Source: an uncultured Flavobacteriales bacterium
GTDB taxonomy: Bacteria > Bacteroidota > Bacteroidia > Flavobacteriales > UBA1820
DNA length: 64,000 nt
Assembly: GCA_902462305.1 (NCBI GenBank)
Contig: CABQBC010000001.1
Location: 52,561 to 116,560 of the forward strand
Direction: 5' to 3'
Position numbers and translations under genes: made by a program. This document shows positions 8,178 to 62,745 of this stretch, one piece after another. Position 1 is the stretch's first letter; the number at the start of each line of letters is the position of its first letter. The notes beneath the pieces are model-generated. The model was not told the origin of the DNA and searched no databases. It saw only the letters and a list, made by a program, of their open reading frames with translations.

Positions 8178-8492
8178 ATGATAAGCCTTATAATTACGCT
8201 GGTCACCTTGTTCTTTATGGGCAAGACCTTTGAAAAAATGGGACGTTCCTTCTGGCAGGGATTCATTCCTATCTACAACCTCTACATACTGTTGGAAGAA
8301 TTCGGCAAACCGCTGTGGTGGCTCATATTGCTGTTCATCCCTGTAGCGAACATCATAATACTGTTCCTTATATTCAAGGAACTGGCCGAACGCTTCGGCA
8401 AGGATTACCTGATGGCAATCGTGATGACGGTACTGCCGTTCGTCGGTTTTGCAATACTCGCACTGACGGATTGCACTTACACGAAAAAGTAA
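8178..8492 (+). CDS. Small membrane protein, DUF5684-like
   Basis: 104 aa with GRSFWQGFIPIYNLY.LLE..GKPLWW..L.FIP, typical of this small-membrane-protein family. Confidence 0.7.
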   Translation: MISLIITLVTLFFMGKTFEKMGRSFWQGFIPIYNLYILLEEFGKPLWWLILLFIPVANIIILFLIFKELAERFGKDYLMAIVMTVLPFVGFAILALTDCTYTKK

Positions 8493-8508: not shown

Positions 8509-8540
8509 AAAAAAGGCAGCGCTTTGCGCTGCCTTTTTTT
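8509..8540. terminator. Bidirectional rho-independent terminator
   Basis: AAAAAAGGCAGCGC-TTT-GCGCTGCCTTTTTTT between convergent genes (ends at 8492 on plus and 8562 on minus). Confidence 0.8.
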
Positions 8541-8561: not shown

Positions 8562-9431
8562 TTATATTTTTTCCAAAGACACTCCGAAATCGCGCACCAG
8601 TATCCTTTCGGTCTGCATGAACAGCCAGTCCTTATTCCTGTGCGAAGCGGCGAAATCGCGTATCCTGAAATGGCGGTTTCCCTTGTACACCAATCCGCTG
8701 CCGCGCTCCTTTTCCGGGAACAGTGCATCACATTGTTGCGAAGCGGCCTTCTCGGCATTTTTCAGAAGCGGACGCAGAAATATATTGGCCAAAGGATCGA
8801 ACCACTTGCCCATCGTTATCATATCGGTATTCACCACTCCTGGATCGTACGCATTCACCACCACGGAATCGGAACCTTTCAGCCGTTCGGCAAGACTCTG
8901 GGTAAACATCATCAGCGCAAGTTTCGAGCAGGCATAAGTGCGTAACCGTCTGAAACCTTCTTCCTTAGGAGTAAAGAAATCTTTTTCCACCCGTCCCAGT
9001 TTTGCCATAACGGAAACCGTATTCATAATCCTCGACAACCCTTCCGAACGCTTGAGTATAGGCATCATAAGACGAGTGAGCAGGTATGTGCCGATGTAAT
9101 TGACACCCACCGTCGTTTCAAAACCATCGGCAGTAGTCGAAAAACCACGGCTTATAACACCCGCATTGTTTACCAACGCACGTACATTATACCCTTTTTC
9201 ATCCACCTGGCGCACGAAATTCTTTATCGACTCGAACGACGACAAATCAAGTTCGAAAAGACGCATGTCCCGGTTCGACGTAATATATTTCACATCCTCG
9301 AATATCGGGGAGGCTTTCTCCATATTGCGGCATGCCATTATCACGCCGTAATCCATATCTGCCAGCAGTTCGGCCAAATTACGCCCTATGCCTCCGCTGG
9401 CTCCCGTTATTATTATCCAGTTAGTGTTCAT
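8562..9431 (-). CDS. SDR-family oxidoreductase (candidate hydroxysteroid dehydrogenase, last gene of the steroid operon)
   Basis: 289 aa with TGASGGIG cofactor motif, NNAG and a YACSK (YxxxK) catalytic motif. The start overlaps the upstream SDR stop by 11 nt. Confidence 0.9.
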   Translation of the reverse strand: MNTNWIIITGASGGIGRNLAELLADMDYGVIMACRNMEKASPIFEDVKYITSNRDMRLFELDLSSFESIKNFVRQVDEKGYNVRALVNNAGVISRGFSTTADGFETTVGVNYIGTYLLTRLMMPILKRSEGLSRIMNTVSVMAKLGRVEKDFFTPKEEGFRRLRTYACSKLALMMFTQSLAERLKGSDSVVVNAYDPGVVNTDMITMGKWFDPLANIFLRPLLKNAEKAASQQCDALFPEKERGSGLVYKGNRHFRIRDFAASHRNKDWLFMQTERILVRDFGVSLEKI

Positions 9432-10227
9432 ATTCAGACAACCTATTCTTTAAGGCCCGGATTAGAAAACCGGGCATTACCGCCATAACGGGCACGAACA
9501 ATTTGTTCATAAGCCCCGGCACTATAATTTCCCTGCGCGCGAACATAGCACGCAAGGCCTTTTTAACCAACCGCTCCGGAGTACACAGAACCCCTAGCCT
9601 CACCCCCAGCCTTTGGTAACGCGGGGCCAATCCGTACAAACCGGTGGATACGCCGCCGGGACACACGGCCGTGACCCCCACCCCGAAAGGCTTCATCTCA
9701 TGGTGCATGGCACGCGAAAAATTGCGGATATAAACCTTTGTCGCCCCGTAAAGCGCTATACCCGGAACCGGCATCCATGCAGATAACGACGACATGTTGA
9801 GGATATATCCCCTTCCCCTGTTTTTCATTCCGGAGCCGAACAACCTGCACAACATAGTCACGGTATTCATATGCAGGACCATCATCGTTTCAAGCCTTTG
9901 CGGGGAAGTATCGACTATATCGTTGAAAATGAACACTCCGGCATTGTTTATCAGTATATCAACCGTTATCCCGTTTTCTATGCAATACGAAAAAAGACGC
10001 TCTGCCGCATCCGCCACGGCCAAATCGAGGCACAAAGGTACGGCTTTTATCCCAAATTCTTTCTCTATGGCACAAACACAGGCTTCAAGCTGTTCTTTCT
10101 GGTTGCTAACCGCCAGCAAATCGTACCCCATGGAAGCCAACTGCCGTGCATACTCCAGGCCTATACCGCTGCTTGCACCGGTCACAAGGGCAAATCCGCG
10201 TGTGTTCAATCCTGTTTCCCGTGACAT
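9421..10227 (-). CDS. SDR-family oxidoreductase (candidate hydroxysteroid dehydrogenase)
   Basis: TGASSGIG, NNAG and YGATK motifs. I moved the start to MSRETGL (10227) because the 42-codon extension in the ORF track overlaps the upstream gene and looks non-coding. Confidence 0.85.
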   Translation of the reverse strand: MSRETGLNTRGFALVTGASSGIGLEYARQLASMGYDLLAVSNQKEQLEACVCAIEKEFGIKAVPLCLDLAVADAAERLFSYCIENGITVDILINNAGVFIFNDIVDTSPQRLETMMVLHMNTVTMLCRLFGSGMKNRGRGYILNMSSLSAWMPVPGIALYGATKVYIRNFSRAMHHEMKPFGVGVTAVCPGGVSTGLYGLAPRYQRLGVRLGVLCTPERLVKKALRAMFARREIIVPGLMNKLFVPVMAVMPGFLIRALKNRLSEYEH

Positions 10228-11498
10228 TCCCTTTCCCTTATTTTGTCCAACTCGCGCACAATACCGGCCGGAAGGTCCTTCATATGGCGGTGACATGCCA
10301 TCTCCAACGTGTACATCCTCGCTATGCAGTAATTCGTATGGTCGCACGTGCACCGCGCGTTTTCCTCGCGCGCCATGCGGTTTACAAAATCAGGTTCGTT
10401 GACCAACGCACGAGCCATCGACACCAGTTCAAAGCCCTCGCCGAGTACCTGGTCTATTTTTTCTCTGGAAACAAGCCCTCCGACATACACAAGAGGCAGT
10501 TTCAGGTTTTTACGGAAAATACGCGCATCGTCGAGAAAATAAGCCTCGCGGAAAGGAGCTTCCGGTATCATCATACGGCCGAACATCCTCACACCGTACT
10601 TTAGCCACCAACAATCCATGTAATGGGTCATCGTATGCAAAGGCATCTCACCGCGCATGACGTACATAGGAGCGCGGCTGACAAAGCCTCCGCTCAGAAT
10701 CACGGCATGCACACCGCTGCGCTCTATCTCACGTGCTATAACCAAAGCCTCGTCGATATCCACTCCGCCTTTGAAGCCATCCCTCATGTTTGTTTTAACC
10801 AACACTGCCATATCGTCGCCGGCCGCTTCCATAACCTGAGATAGCACCATTTTCATAAACCGCATGCGGTTTTCAAGACTGCCTCCGTATTCGTCCCACC
10901 GGCGGTTGGTGTACGGGCTGAGGAACTGACTTATCAGGTATCCGTGGCCCGCATGTATCTCGACCGCATCGAAACCGGCCTCACGCGCCAGACGTACGGC
11001 ATCGCCGAACGAACGCGCCATACGGACTATCTCGTCCTTTTTCATCCCGCGGACTATCGTAGGCGAATATATATTGAATCCCGACGAAGCGGAAATGGGC
11101 GTTACCCCGCATACGCTGCGGTGCGACATATTTCCGCAATGCCCCAGTTGTATCGAGGCGGCAGCCCCCTCGCGGTGAATGGCATCGGTAATGCGGCGCA
11201 GTCCGGGAATTATCTCCGGGCGCATCCAAAGCTGGCGTTTGAACGACAAGCCGCTCTGTTCCACCGCCGCATAAGCCAGAGTGGTCATACCTATGCCCCC
11301 GGCAGCCACGCTGCGGTGGTATTCGTACAACATATCGGAAGGTGAATTGCCGGGTGCCATACTTTCGAAGGCGGCGGCCCGTATAGTACGGTTGCGAAGC
11401 GTCAGAGGACCTATTTTATACGGAGTGAACAGCAGTGATGTTTTGCTATCTCCGTTGCCGGCCTCCGCATTCGGATTCTCACAGTCTTTAATATTCAT
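10206..11498 (-). CDS. Old-Yellow-Enzyme family NADH:flavin oxidoreductase (candidate 3-oxo-steroid delta4 5-beta-reductase)
   Basis: 430 aa with a TIM-barrel OYE pattern (GFDAVEIHAGHGYLISQFLSP..N.R.DEYGGSLENR) and a C-terminal Cys-rich tail. Confidence 0.88.
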   Translation of the reverse strand: MNIKDCENPNAEAGNGDSKTSLLFTPYKIGPLTLRNRTIRAAAFESMAPGNSPSDMLYEYHRSVAAGGIGMTTLAYAAVEQSGLSFKRQLWMRPEIIPGLRRITDAIHREGAAASIQLGHCGNMSHRSVCGVTPISASSGFNIYSPTIVRGMKKDEIVRMARSFGDAVRLAREAGFDAVEIHAGHGYLISQFLSPYTNRRWDEYGGSLENRMRFMKMVLSQVMEAAGDDMAVLVKTNMRDGFKGGVDIDEALVIAREIERSGVHAVILSGGFVSRAPMYVMRGEMPLHTMTHYMDCWWLKYGVRMFGRMMIPEAPFREAYFLDDARIFRKNLKLPLVYVGGLVSREKIDQVLGEGFELVSMARALVNEPDFVNRMAREENARCTCDHTNYCIARMYTLEMACHRHMKDLPAGIVRELDKIRERECHGKQD

Positions 11499-11514
11499 AG
11501 TCGTCGCTAAAAAA

Positions 11515-12279
11515 TCAATATATAAAAGGTATTATCCTCTTGCGTTTTTCCTTTTTAAACTCATCGCCGAACATCTCGCCGTATTTCTTGTGTAATGCGG
11601 CCGCACGCGGAGCCAGGTTTGCAAATGTCCACCATGCGAATACCGCACCGGCCCACGACCATGTCATAACGGCAAAGCCCGTCCATTGCAACAGTTCACC
11701 GAAATAATTGGCCGAATTGACATAACGGAACAACCCTCCGCGTGGCAGGTAATGTCCCGTATCGCCCGGTTTCCTAAGCCCTCGTATCACCGAATCGGAA
11801 TGTATGTTCACAACCATTCCCGATGCGAACATCAACACCCCGACTATGAATTGCGGAGTGTAAAACCACGATACCGGATATCTGCCTTCGGGGCTGACGT
11901 AGAATATCCATCCGCCCTGCATCAGCGCATTGAGTACGTTGAATACCACCCCCATCAGTATTATCCCTACCGGCATACGCCCTTTTCCGCGTATCAAAAG
12001 CGGGAATATGAACGAACGCTGGAAGTAATGCAATTGGAAAAGAAGGAAAAAACAAAACGGGACGGCATCCCACCGGCGTCCGGAGTGCCACCATAGTATA
12101 CACATGGCTATGAAGACCGGGGATTCCATCAGCACCCAGCCCAGCCGGTTGTCCACCGAAGGGCCCCATTTTCCGTTAACGAACATACCGTAACCGGCTT
12201 TTACAAAGAAAAGGGCTATGAAAACAACGAATGCCATACCCGTCATAACCCATAGGAAAATATCGAAAGCGTGTGCCAT
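11515..12279 (-). CDS. 3-oxo-5-alpha-steroid 4-dehydrogenase (steroid 5-alpha-reductase, SRD5A family)
   Basis: 254-aa polytopic ORF. NIHSDSVIRGLRKPGDTGHYLPRGGLFRYVNSANYFGELLQWTGFAVMTWSW...IIPFIY matches my recollection of the conserved C-terminal half of human SRD5A1/2. Confidence 0.92.
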   Translation of the reverse strand: MAHAFDIFLWVMTGMAFVVFIALFFVKAGYGMFVNGKWGPSVDNRLGWVLMESPVFIAMCILWWHSGRRWDAVPFCFFLLFQLHYFQRSFIFPLLIRGKGRMPVGIILMGVVFNVLNALMQGGWIFYVSPEGRYPVSWFYTPQFIVGVLMFASGMVVNIHSDSVIRGLRKPGDTGHYLPRGGLFRYVNSANYFGELLQWTGFAVMTWSWAGAVFAWWTFANLAPRAAALHKKYGEMFGDEFKKEKRKRIIPFIY

Positions 12280-12302
12280 CCCTTACATAATCCTGTTGTT
12301 AG

Positions 12303-13256
12303 CTAATATTCCAATTTGACGTTGTCCACCCAAAGTGAGTTTCCGAGCGAACCCATATAAGCCCCCAACGAACCGGACGAAAACATCAGTATGATATGTG
12401 TAGGCGTTTCATCGGCTTCTCCCCACGCCACTTCCTGTATAGGGACCATCTTGCCTTTGCTGTTCATGGCGTAAAAAGCGTTCTCTCCGTTGGCAAAAGA
12501 CATGCCGTCGTGATATTTACCGCTTTTGGTAGCGTCCCCGTATATCAGTTCCAGACGATGTCCGTCAACCCATCCGTCAGTAGAGTGGGCGAAACGCTCG
12601 CTGGCCGATGCTATACGGTGTGAAAATATATTTCCGTTTTTATCTTCCCAGCGTTTTTGCAGGAATACGAATACCTCGGCCTTGTCGCGGCCTTTCACTT
12701 TTTCGGGAGCGCTCCCCGTTGCACGCGTTACAAGCGTGTCTTCGGATATTTTAGCCTTGTAGTCGAAGACAACGGCTTTGGGCCGGCCCGTAAAAGGCAT
12801 GCCCATGTTTATCTTTCCATAGGGGTTGCTCGTACCGCGTATGGGCTCCATAGTCTCGCCCAGAAATACACTTCCGGAAGCCAGTACAGTGATGTTGACC
12901 ATGCCGAGCACTTTACACGTTTCTAGTTTGGTGTCCATCCTGACACAATAGCCTTTACCGCGTTTTTCCGGGAAAACGGTAACCGATGTCTTGACAACAC
13001 CGGCTACTTTGGCCATCACGTTCGACGAGGCCCAGGGCGAACCTCCGGCATTACGGTACGGTTCCGCGCCTTTTATGGTATCCGACGGAGCTATTGCATA
13101 CACGTCGACCGTTTTTCCTCCTATCACGAACGATTCTTTTATCTGGCGTACCACCCAGTTTTCAAAATTGCCGAAAGGGATTTCTTTCTTTACAGTTTCC
13201 TGGCAAAACGCCGCCTGAAAAAATAGGAGCGCAATTATCAACATCGTTTTTCCCAT
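12303..13256 (-). CDS. Secreted PCMD-domain protein (putative carbohydrate-metabolism-domain family), first gene of the steroid operon
   Basis: Start set at MGKTMLIIALLFFQAAFCQ (signal peptide). The C-terminal ...LWVDNVKLEY is paralogous to the end of 42072-43202 (...LLLVDNVKLNY). The stop lies 23 nt upstream of the 5-alpha-reductase ATG. Confidence 0.75.
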   Translation of the reverse strand: MGKTMLIIALLFFQAAFCQETVKKEIPFGNFENWVVRQIKESFVIGGKTVDVYAIAPSDTIKGAEPYRNAGGSPWASSNVMAKVAGVVKTSVTVFPEKRGKGYCVRMDTKLETCKVLGMVNITVLASGSVFLGETMEPIRGTSNPYGKINMGMPFTGRPKAVVFDYKAKISEDTLVTRATGSAPEKVKGRDKAEVFVFLQKRWEDKNGNIFSHRIASASERFAHSTDGWVDGHRLELIYGDATKSGKYHDGMSFANGENAFYAMNSKGKMVPIQEVAWGEADETPTHIILMFSSGSLGAYMGSLGNSLWVDNVKLEY

Positions 13257-13360
13257 ATCAAATTCTCTAAGCCAAAGCACATCCTCACCGAATGTTTACT
13301 TTAAATTAAACTTTTCATAAAATTATGTAAATATAAACATTATTGGCGAATTGTAAATAC

Positions 13361-13390
13361 AAAAAAAGTCGCCCCAAAGGACGACTTTAT
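13361..13390 (-). terminator. gyrB terminator
   Basis: The minus strand reads AAAGTCGTCCTTTGGGGCGACTTTTTTT, about 20 nt after the gyrB stop. Confidence 0.7.
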
Positions 13391-61491: not shown

Positions 61492-62745
61492 TTGATATTA
61501 ACCAAATACATAGTATTCGTATTTTTATGTTGCGCACTATGCATATGCCACATATGCAAGGCACAGGAGCGCGACAACAAAATACATTCAAAAGGAGAAG
61601 CTCCCGACACGGTACGGTACGGCATAAGCCCGGCGGTAGCCGACTCCACCTCCGGCGTACCTGAAGCAAAAAAATCGAAATTCATAGGCTTCATAGACTC
61701 CGTGAGCAGCCTTTTTGAGGTAGATACTACCAAACGCCGCAAAGTGTCGTTTCTGGCCGTTCCCGAATTTTCATACTCGGAAGAGGACGGCTTGGGACTT
61801 GGATTCACAGCGCGTATGTACATAAACAACTACAAACCAGCCGTAATTGGAAGGATCAAACGACAATCCTACGTGGACCTTTCCGCCGATTTCACATTCA
61901 AAGGCAACATGTCGGTATCCATACGTCCGGTCACGTATTTCATGAACGACCGTCTGCTGGTGAAAGGTTACTTCGGATTGGGGCACTACCCTTCGACATT
62001 CTGGGCAATTGGCCCCGACACCACCGACGATCAGAGCGAAGAATACGACAAACGCACAACCATACTGCGTATCAGCACTTACTGGGAATGGTTCCGGAAC
62101 ATATACATAGGCGTAGGGCTGCATTACAACGACTACGGCGTATCAGACGTTAAGGAAGGAGGTATGCTCGAACCTGGGACCATAACAGGCAGCTCCGGAA
62201 CAGTTTCTTCCGGTTTTTCCCTGCATTACCTGTACGACCGACGCGATCATCAGTTCGTTCCTTTGGACGGGCTATACCTGAGCGTCGACGGATATTTCAA
62301 CGCTAAATTCATGGGAAGCAGCGAAAATTACACGAAATATCTGGTCGATATACGGTATTACGTCCCGATAGCATCCACACAAGTGATTGCATTCAATTTC
62401 TACTCGCAGATGTCCACCGGACATGTTCCGTTTCAGGATATGGCCCAGTTGTCCAACGGGGTACACAGCCGTGGATATAGCACCGGCCGGTACAATGACC
62501 GCAACCTTATGTCCGTACAGGCGGAATACAGGTATTACTTCGGGCGCTTCGGACTGGCCGCTTTCGCCAGTACAGCCAACGTAGGGCCTACACCATTGAA
62601 AGCCCTTAAAATGGACAAGCCAACATTCGGCGGCGGACTTCGTTTCAAGCCCTTCAAAAACCAGAGGATGTACTTCCGTGCCGACATAGGCGTGACCACA
62701 CGCGGCGATACGCAGATATACCTCGGTCTGGACGAACTTTTCTAA
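61492..62745 (+). CDS. Omp85/BamA-TamA-family outer-membrane protein (bacterial surface antigen D15 barrel, no POTRA seen)
   Basis: 417 aa with a beta-barrel pattern. The C-terminal ...GGGLRFKPFKNQRMYFRADIGV...YLGLDELF is typical of Omp85 barrels. The start is TTG at 61492 because there is no in-frame ATG near the signal peptide. Confidence 0.8.
   Translation: MILTKYIVFVFLCCALCICHICKAQERDNKIHSKGEAPDTVRYGISPAVADSTSGVPEAKKSKFIGFIDSVSSLFEVDTTKRRKVSFLAVPEFSYSEEDGLGLGFTARMYINNYKPAVIGRIKRQSYVDLSADFTFKGNMSVSIRPVTYFMNDRLLVKGYFGLGHYPSTFWAIGPDTTDDQSEEYDKRTTILRISTYWEWFRNIYIGVGLHYNDYGVSDVKEGGMLEPGTITGSSGTVSSGFSLHYLYDRRDHQFVPLDGLYLSVDGYFNAKFMGSSENYTKYLVDIRYYVPIASTQVIAFNFYSQMSTGHVPFQDMAQLSNGVHSRGYSTGRYNDRNLMSVQAEYRYYFGRFGLAAFASTANVGPTPLKALKMDKPTFGGGLRFKPFKNQRMYFRADIGVTTRGDTQIYLGLDELF

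Follow-up and report, generated by a model that had tools for sequence, protein, structure and literature searches.

A probable orthologue of the Bacteroidota isoallolithocholate gene cluster, preceded by a gene for an exported PCMD protein, in an uncultured gut Bacteroidota species

Isoallolithocholic acid (isoalloLCA; LCA, lithocholic acid) and other bile acids of the allo type have an inhibitory effect on Gram-positive pathogens and favour regulatory T (Treg) cells. The taxa that carry the pathway therefore matter for the interpretation of metagenomes. Sato and co-workers reportedly described, in 2021, clusters of genes for a 5-alpha-reductase (5AR), a 5-beta-reductase (5BR) and a 3beta-hydroxysteroid dehydrogenase (3beta-HSDH) in Odoribacteraceae and Parabacteroides. 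Here, we analyse five genes on the minus strand (positions 8562–13256) of a 64,000-nt stretch, called the window in the following, of contig CABQBC010000001.1 from an uncultured Flavobacteriales bacterium (GCA_902462305.1). Four of them encode candidate enzymes of this kind, and the first encodes a PCMD protein. The host belongs to an uncultured Bacteroidota lineage outside the genera that an initial annotation of this DNA, made from its letters, had named as carriers. The protein cluster into which the window PCMD falls contains an NCBI protein from a metagenome-assembled genome with the label 'Flavobacteriales bacterium'.

The steps of the pathway were described by Li et al. (bioRxiv 10.1101/2021.01.08.425963). 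In B. dorei, Bacdor_03090 turns 3-oxoLCA into 3-oxo-delta4-LCA (5BR in reverse), Bacdor_03091 (5AR) turns 3-oxo-delta4-LCA into 3-oxoalloLCA, and Bacdor_03089 (3beta-HSDH) turns 3-oxoalloLCA into isoalloLCA. Deletion of Parmer_04016-18 in P. merdae led to the loss of all products, including isoalloLCA. Strains with a 'putative 17beta-HSDH' gene before the 3beta-HSDH homologue remained isoalloLCA producers in the same study, which counted proteins as homologues at >50% identity and >80% coverage. According to reviews that summarise Sato et al. (2021), Parabacteroides, Bacteroides, Alistipes and Odoribacter have 5AR clusters that are active, and a culture-collection study found 5AR and 5BR to be adjacent in most gut Bacteroidales. 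A second relevant system is BT_0411-BT_0416 of B. thetaiotaomicron, a cluster for 3'-phosphoadenosine 5'-phosphosulfate (PAPS) and cholesterol/steroid sulfonation (PMC9417993). Its sulfotransferase type (BT_0416, BtSULT) prefers flat 5-alpha steroids; its flat substrates include cholesterol, dehydroepiandrosterone (DHEA) and pregnenolone, and also isoalloLCA.

The genes of the window locus are listed in the order of transcription. OYE stands for Old Yellow Enzyme, SDR for short-chain dehydrogenase/reductase and FMN for flavin mononucleotide.

12303–13256, minus strand: PCMD gene, gene 1 of the unit; 317 aa from ATG; PF13201, E 3e-22
11515–12279, minus strand: 5AR, assigned as an SRD5A-family membrane 3-oxo-steroid 5-alpha-reductase; 254 aa; Steroid_dh PF02544, E 2e-43
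10206–11498, minus strand: OYE ('5BR'), a short FMN oxidoreductase and candidate 3-oxo-delta4 / 3-oxo-5beta steroid oxidoreductase; 430 aa; Oxidored_FMN PF00724, E 3e-56
9421–10227, minus strand: SDR-A, a classical SDR; 268 aa from ATG; adh_short PF00106, E 3e-43
8562–9431, minus strand: SDR-B, an RDH/PRK06197-like SDR and candidate 3beta-HSDH; 289 aa; PF00106, E 2e-32

The locus shares with the isoalloLCA cluster of B. dorei and P. merdae, which is widespread in Bacteroidales, the three enzyme families, their order, the common strand and the tight packing. It also resembles the published two-SDR variant, in which a second SDR stands between 5BR and the terminal SDR. Judged from these sequences, the locus is likely orthologous to the Bacteroidota cluster for isomerisation and reduction of the steroid A ring, which makes allo- and isoallo-lithocholate. 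Two things set it apart from the clusters studied so far: a gene for an exported PCMD protein comes first in the unit, and the host is an uncultured lineage whose nearest species-representative 5AR (among the best 80 of 598 stretches, see below) is 74% identical. Of the five-gene match to the published cluster that the initial annotation had claimed, the four enzymes and their order stand, but not PCMD, which is absent from published clusters. What is new is a copy of the cluster in an uncultured gut Bacteroidota species, and its sole unusual feature is the exported PCMD protein as first gene.

Five packed minus-strand genes had been proposed here, and both the list of open reading frames (ORFs) and the Pfam matches bear this out. 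The junctions computed from the ORF coordinates are +23 nt (PCMD/5AR), +16 nt (5AR/OYE), −22 nt (OYE/SDR-A) and −11 nt (SDR-A/SDR-B), which equals the 23- and 16-nt gaps and the 22- and 11-nt overlaps given before. The identical five genes were called independently on contigs from metagenomes, the longest of 74 kb, that are 99–100% identical to the window. What the sequences show directly is which genes are present, in what order and at what spacing, the families they belong to, and the conservation of catalytic residues and of synteny.

For synteny, one genome per GTDB species was scanned with a 5AR alignment. Out of 598 confirmed stretches, we analysed the best 80, in which tblastn with the proteins of the window gave the gene order; none of these 80 is from P. 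merdae, P. dorei or O. laneus. The order 5AR-OYE-SDR-A(-SDR-B) on one strand was found in about 76 of the 80 loci, and 5AR and OYE were adjacent in 76. Identity to the window proteins was 63–74% for 5AR, 59–75% for OYE, 43–59% for SDR-A and 24–44% for SDR-B. The 74% relative is the nearest 5AR in this set, and none of the 80 comes from the species of the window itself. Loci with the cluster belong to Alistipes hominis, A. timonensis, A. senegalensis, Gabonibacter massiliensis and Butyricimonas (the last two Odoribacteraceae), and further to Barnesiella, Muribaculaceae, Heminiphilus and Millionella. The orthology that the initial annotation had proposed is supported because the synteny is family-wide and 5AR is 63–74% identical to that of other Bacteroidales. 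Neighbouring genes for a Sirtuin, a glutamate decarboxylase, methylmalonyl-CoA-related proteins and others were considered as further components and rejected, as they reflect synteny of the Alistipes lineage.

Over its full length, the 254-aa protein can be aligned with the solved bacterial enzyme PbSRD5A (PDB 7C83; E 2e-59) and with human SRD5A2 (PDB 7BW1; E 3e-41). The match to a TECR-like enoyl reductase was much weaker (E 2e-6). Its best solved relatives are hence true steroid 5-alpha-reductases, and the earlier SRD5A call holds: the protein does not fall outside this family. The motifs named for it were all located (NIHSD at 158, LRKPG at 168 and SANYFGE at 189). Residues E52 and Y85 align with E57 and Y91 of human SRD5A2, and neither varies among 23 homologues. 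The same is true of N158, D162, R169, N191, E195 and R225 and of the motifs for the NADPH (reduced nicotinamide adenine dinucleotide phosphate) site. We take Glu57 and Tyr91 to be the residues that grip the C3 ketone in the SRD5A2 structure. A crude hydropathy scan gave several hydrophobic segments, and the length fits a polytopic (7-TM) SRD5A protein (~250–260 aa). The likeness to SRD5A1/2 and PbSRD5A thus extends to the full-length alignment, the polytopic build of ~254 aa, the catalytic Glu/Tyr pair and the three motifs. Unlike human SRD5A1/2, the window 5AR is bacterial and stands in an operon with a flavin ene-reductase and SDRs, and its substrate is presumably a bile-acid intermediate.

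The 430-aa protein had been called an OYE, and a FadH/BaiCD-type OYE N-terminal domain indeed scores highest. The top NCBIfam matches were mycofact_OYE_2 (206 bits) and BaiCD (NF041087; 179 bits, E 1e-52), both to the N-terminal domain only and both far under the equivalog cut-offs. The BaiCD match falls short of its cut-off (179 versus 825 bits) and covers profile positions 4–261 of 642. Across 76 orthologues, H182, H185 and Y187 of the active-site motif HxxHGY show no or almost no variation. The same holds for C385, C391 and C402, and C121 is invariant. The C-terminal cysteine motif C-x-C-x5-C-x10-C (residues 383–402) may be an Fe-S or metal site. BaiCD/BaiH of Clostridium scindens and FadH have the OYE TIM barrel, the HxxHGY site and then a Cys-rich segment in common with the window protein; their chemistry is the ene-reduction/oxidation of 3-oxo-delta4 steroids. 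Unlike BaiCD/FadH (~640 aa, CxxCxxxC...C), the window OYE has 430 aa, a C-x5-C-x10-C arrangement and no flavin adenine dinucleotide (FAD)/NAD(P)H domains. The label '5BR' therefore stands as far as OYE family and position in the cluster are concerned, but not as membership of the BaiCD equivalog. Going by its sequence, the OYE can function like 5BR without belonging to the BaiCD family.

Both SDRs have the TGxxxGIG and YxxxK motifs that had been noted, and the motifs are intact. In SDR-A, these are TGASSGIG (at 16), NNAG and YGATK (at 160), and in SDR-B TGASGGIG (at 9), NNAG and YACSK (at 166). SDR-B matched PRK06197 with E 9e-39, which is under the cut-off. SDR-A occupies the slot of the published 'putative 17beta-HSDH' that precedes the 3beta-HSDH homologue. 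The ORF of SDR-A extends up to a GTG at 10353, which would give a 148-nt overlap with the OYE gene; gene callers chose the ATG at 10227.

The mechanism is drawn from characterised homologous clusters; substrates, step directions, stereochemistry, co-transcription and the role of PCMD are what we infer from them and from the gene context. The inner-membrane SRD5A-type enzyme would use NADPH for an alpha-face reduction of the delta4 bond, giving a flat 3-oxo-5alpha (allo) steroid, and Glu52 and Tyr85 would polarise the C3 ketone. One or both SDRs would turn the 3-ketone into a 3beta (or 3alpha) alcohol, yielding isoallo/allo products. PCMD would not be an enzyme of the pathway but probably an envelope accessory protein that shares its substrates.

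The unit is bounded by the following elements.

13365–13388, minus strand: intrinsic terminator of the upstream gyrB, with a 10-bp stem (5 GC pairs) followed by a T run, TTTTTGTATTT; 5' limit of the unit
13257–13364, minus strand: AT-rich leader of PCMD, ~108 nt, with the putative promoter
8509–8539, both strands: strong hairpin terminator with a 14-bp stem (7 GC pairs) and A and T runs on either side; 3' limit of the unit

Both bracketing terminators proposed in the initial annotation were recovered in this way (13388–13365 and 8539–8509). Because of the tight spacing and the flanking terminators, the five genes most likely form one transcript. Sigma-70-like matches lie in the PCMD leader at 13357–13330 and 13349–13322. 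Two terminator-like matches inside coding sequence of the unit (12074–12056 and 10012–9995) were dismissed as weak and within chance, with seven matches observed versus 9.7 expected from shuffles.

Several observations weigh against the locus being an orthologous isoalloLCA cluster that works as a unit. The partner of the OYE and the direction of its reaction are uncertain because the protein lies far under the BaiCD cut-off and is without the electron-transfer domains of BaiCD. Specificity for 3alpha, 3beta or 17beta positions is unreadable from either SDR sequence. Some of the 80 species loci have a shorter cluster of three genes, in which OYE is followed by SDR-A alone or by SDR-B alone. 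No exact Bacteroidetes −7 motif (TAnnTTTG) was found upstream of PCMD on this strand, near matches only (e.g. TATATTTA); across the window, 42 copies of the motif were observed versus 43 expected, meaning no enrichment. Moreover, the 5AR-OYE-SDR-A module is dispensable because close relatives are without it at the syntenic position. These are four loci (L165–L168) with GyrB 88–90% identical to that of the window and the gene order gyrB-PCMD-SDR-B-DUF5684-GreA-HIT, from which 5AR, OYE and SDR-A are absent (e.g. L165, 3595–9829).

In these four relatives, the three-gene module was gained or lost as a block between PCMD and SDR-B. Loss is tentatively the simpler reading because a more distant relative (L170, partial GyrB 78%) has all five genes here, in the identical order with PCMD first and in the same gyrB...GreA-HIT context.

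The PCMD gene could stand next to the enzyme genes without a functional tie to them. It might, for instance, encode an envelope protein that binds carbohydrates and is expressed with the enzymes by promoter sharing or read-through, so that the functional unit would be the four enzyme genes. The PF13201 match is clear (79.9 bits versus a cut-off of 28). The start is ambiguous: the ORF reaches a GTG at 13280, and the protein has 325 aa in some databases and 317 aa at NCBI. PCMD is predicted to be exported, unlike the four enzymes, because it has a Sec-type signal peptide; the signals of its homologues end in A-x-A|Q, and a lipobox Cys is absent in most. The AlphaFold model (predicted local distance difference test, pLDDT, 91.8) has as top fold matches the uncharacterised Bacteroides PCMD proteins BT_2081, BACOVA_00087, BT3745 and BVU_0247. 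A search of the model for a lipid-binding fold matched only uncharacterised PCMD structures and sandwiches resembling carbohydrate-binding modules (CBMs), which say nothing on the ligand. The structure hence gives no independent support for steroid binding. The CBM-like beta-sandwich, whose nearest structures are uncharacterised 'putative glycoside hydrolases', rather suits an unrelated envelope protein. So do the published clusters, which have no PCMD gene, and the fact that a PCMD homologue stands beside the cluster in only 8 of the 80 best GTDB species loci.

However, apart from the enzymes, PCMD alone is found repeatedly beside the cluster in different lineages of these 80 loci. The homologues at 5AR clusters are 42–63% identical to that of the window and stand in four distinct arrangements.

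Upstream and divergent: species loci L002, L023, L033, L040 and L063
After SDR-A: species loci L058 and L072; in L072, SDR-B follows PCMD and the junctions overlap
After SDR-B: species locus L061
Upstream and co-directional: the window locus

Furthermore, the identical five-gene order with PCMD first is retained in a different chromosomal context (L169), and PCMD and SDR-B persist as a pair in L165–L168, where the other three genes are absent. These observations argue against a chance neighbour.

The reciprocal test was a scan of JGI/ENA metagenome contigs with a PCMD alignment, which gave 80 loci (L082–L161). Five of these adjoin 5AR clusters. In 58 of the 80, PCMD lies on the same strand at a median of 17 nt downstream of the gene of a 368-aa Sulfotransfer_3 protein, and this gene is preceded by genes for CysN, CysD, CysC, an SLC13-type transporter and CysQ. 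BT_0411-BT_0416 has the same gene order. The isolate Parabacteroides sp. PF5-6 (L171, 134–5636) likewise has CysC-CysD-CysN-sulfotransferase-PCMD. Pfam family and gene context suggest that the sulfotransferases beside PCMD are BT_0416 orthologues. A distance tree groups the PCMDs beside sulfotransferases into a single clade, with 12 lineages at <90% mutual identity; the 5AR-linked PCMDs belong to at least four other lineages. This clade directly downstream of a steroid sulfotransferase is hard to square with an unrelated neighbour.

The window locus and the BtSULT cluster share a PCMD of the same subfamily (~50–56% identical to that of the window), which in the latter stands directly downstream of the sulfotransferase. 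In addition, the substrates of BtSULT are flat 5alpha/3beta-OH steroids, the products of a 5AR and 3beta-HSDH pathway. Unlike the BtSULT cluster, the window locus has no sulfotransferase or PAPS genes, and the link is the common PCMD partner only. That PCMD is linked to two steroid-modifying clusters, repeatedly and across rearrangements, suggests that it handles the same flat steroids. By this association, and with other homologues paired with an Omp85-like outer-membrane barrel (see below), we tentatively propose that the PCMD subfamily comprises exported accessory factors for flat (5alpha/3beta-hydroxy) steroids, for binding or for passage across the outer membrane or periplasm; as a specific claim on function, this is doubtful. 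That PCMD is an unrelated neighbour of a four-gene unit is a serious possibility, which we rate at somewhat under even.

Among the papers examined, none deals with BT_0417 or PCMD proteins in a steroid context, and none describes a component for transport or binding for the 5AR or the BtSULT cluster. PCMD, being linked to both, is a candidate for how hydrophobic steroids reach intracellular and inner-membrane enzymes. If this is true, PCMD would be an unrecognised common component joining isoalloLCA synthesis and steroid sulfonation.

A less probable alternative concerns the substrates. The same enzymes could natively act on neutral sterols or steroid hormones instead of bile acids, for example from cholest-4-en-3-one via 5alpha-cholestanone to cholestanol, or from testosterone or progesterone to 5alpha-dihydro and 3beta-hydroxy products. 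SRD5A enzymes and PbSRD5A reduce steroid hormones, and reviews count Bacteroidota 5AR and 3beta-HSDH among the potential androgen-metabolising enzymes. The PCMD subfamily also accompanies the BT_0416-type sulfotransferase, which is active on cholesterol, DHEA and pregnenolone as well as on isoalloLCA. Still, the experiments on this type of cluster concern LCA-derived bile acids only, and no hormone data were found for the Bacteroidota enzymes. We therefore consider sterols or hormones unlikely as the native substrates. Very improbable is a third reading, in which the 254-aa protein acts on lipids other than steroids, as a reductase, or is a methyltransferase-like membrane protein of the DUF1295/PEMT type, and the cluster reduces another enone, a quinone or a lipid: it draws on weak Pfam matches to DUF1295 (E 8e-6, 26 bits) and PEMT (E 2e-4, 22 bits) and on the NCBI name of its homologues ('DUF1295 domain-containing protein'), but Steroid_dh dominates with 149 bits, the similarity to SRD5A far exceeds that to TECR-like proteins, the steroid-site Glu and Tyr are conserved, and bile-acid activity was demonstrated for homologous clusters. 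With the locus as a probable isoalloLCA-type cluster, the known range of the cluster would extend to an uncultured lineage that is present in several metagenomes.

Other neighbours of PCMD homologues were also recorded. A few homologues adjoin housekeeping genes or Lgt/GT2, and some adjoin Omp85-like or EptA-like envelope genes, which again suits an unrelated envelope protein. A pairing with a barrel of the Omp85 superfamily (~400 aa) was found in L093, L148, L149, L152, L172 (8001–11999) and L002 (1418–6276). The PCMD-Omp85 pair is followed in L002 and L172 by a protein with a 'Sulfatase' domain; these two proteins share 51% identity. A link to the desulfation of steroid sulfates via the L002 'Sulfatase' was rejected: an EptA_B_N domain is present, and the protein is phosphoethanolamine-transferase-like. 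The PCMD-Omp85-EptA-like trio of L002 is divergent from its 5AR-OYE-SDR-A genes. The window itself encodes a 417-aa Omp85-superfamily protein on the plus strand (61492–62745), which is 24–28% identical to the PCMD-paired barrels elsewhere. No linkage is implied for it because it lies ~48 kb from the operon.

An Rfam scan of the window (1–64000) gave no family at the gathering score and no rRNA. The operon is followed by one convergent gene.

8178–8492, plus strand: DUF5684 gene for a small membrane protein, convergent with the operon and sharing its terminator

This gene is syntenic in relatives with and without the reductase genes. As its synteny holds whether or not these genes are present, it is probably unrelated to the operon.

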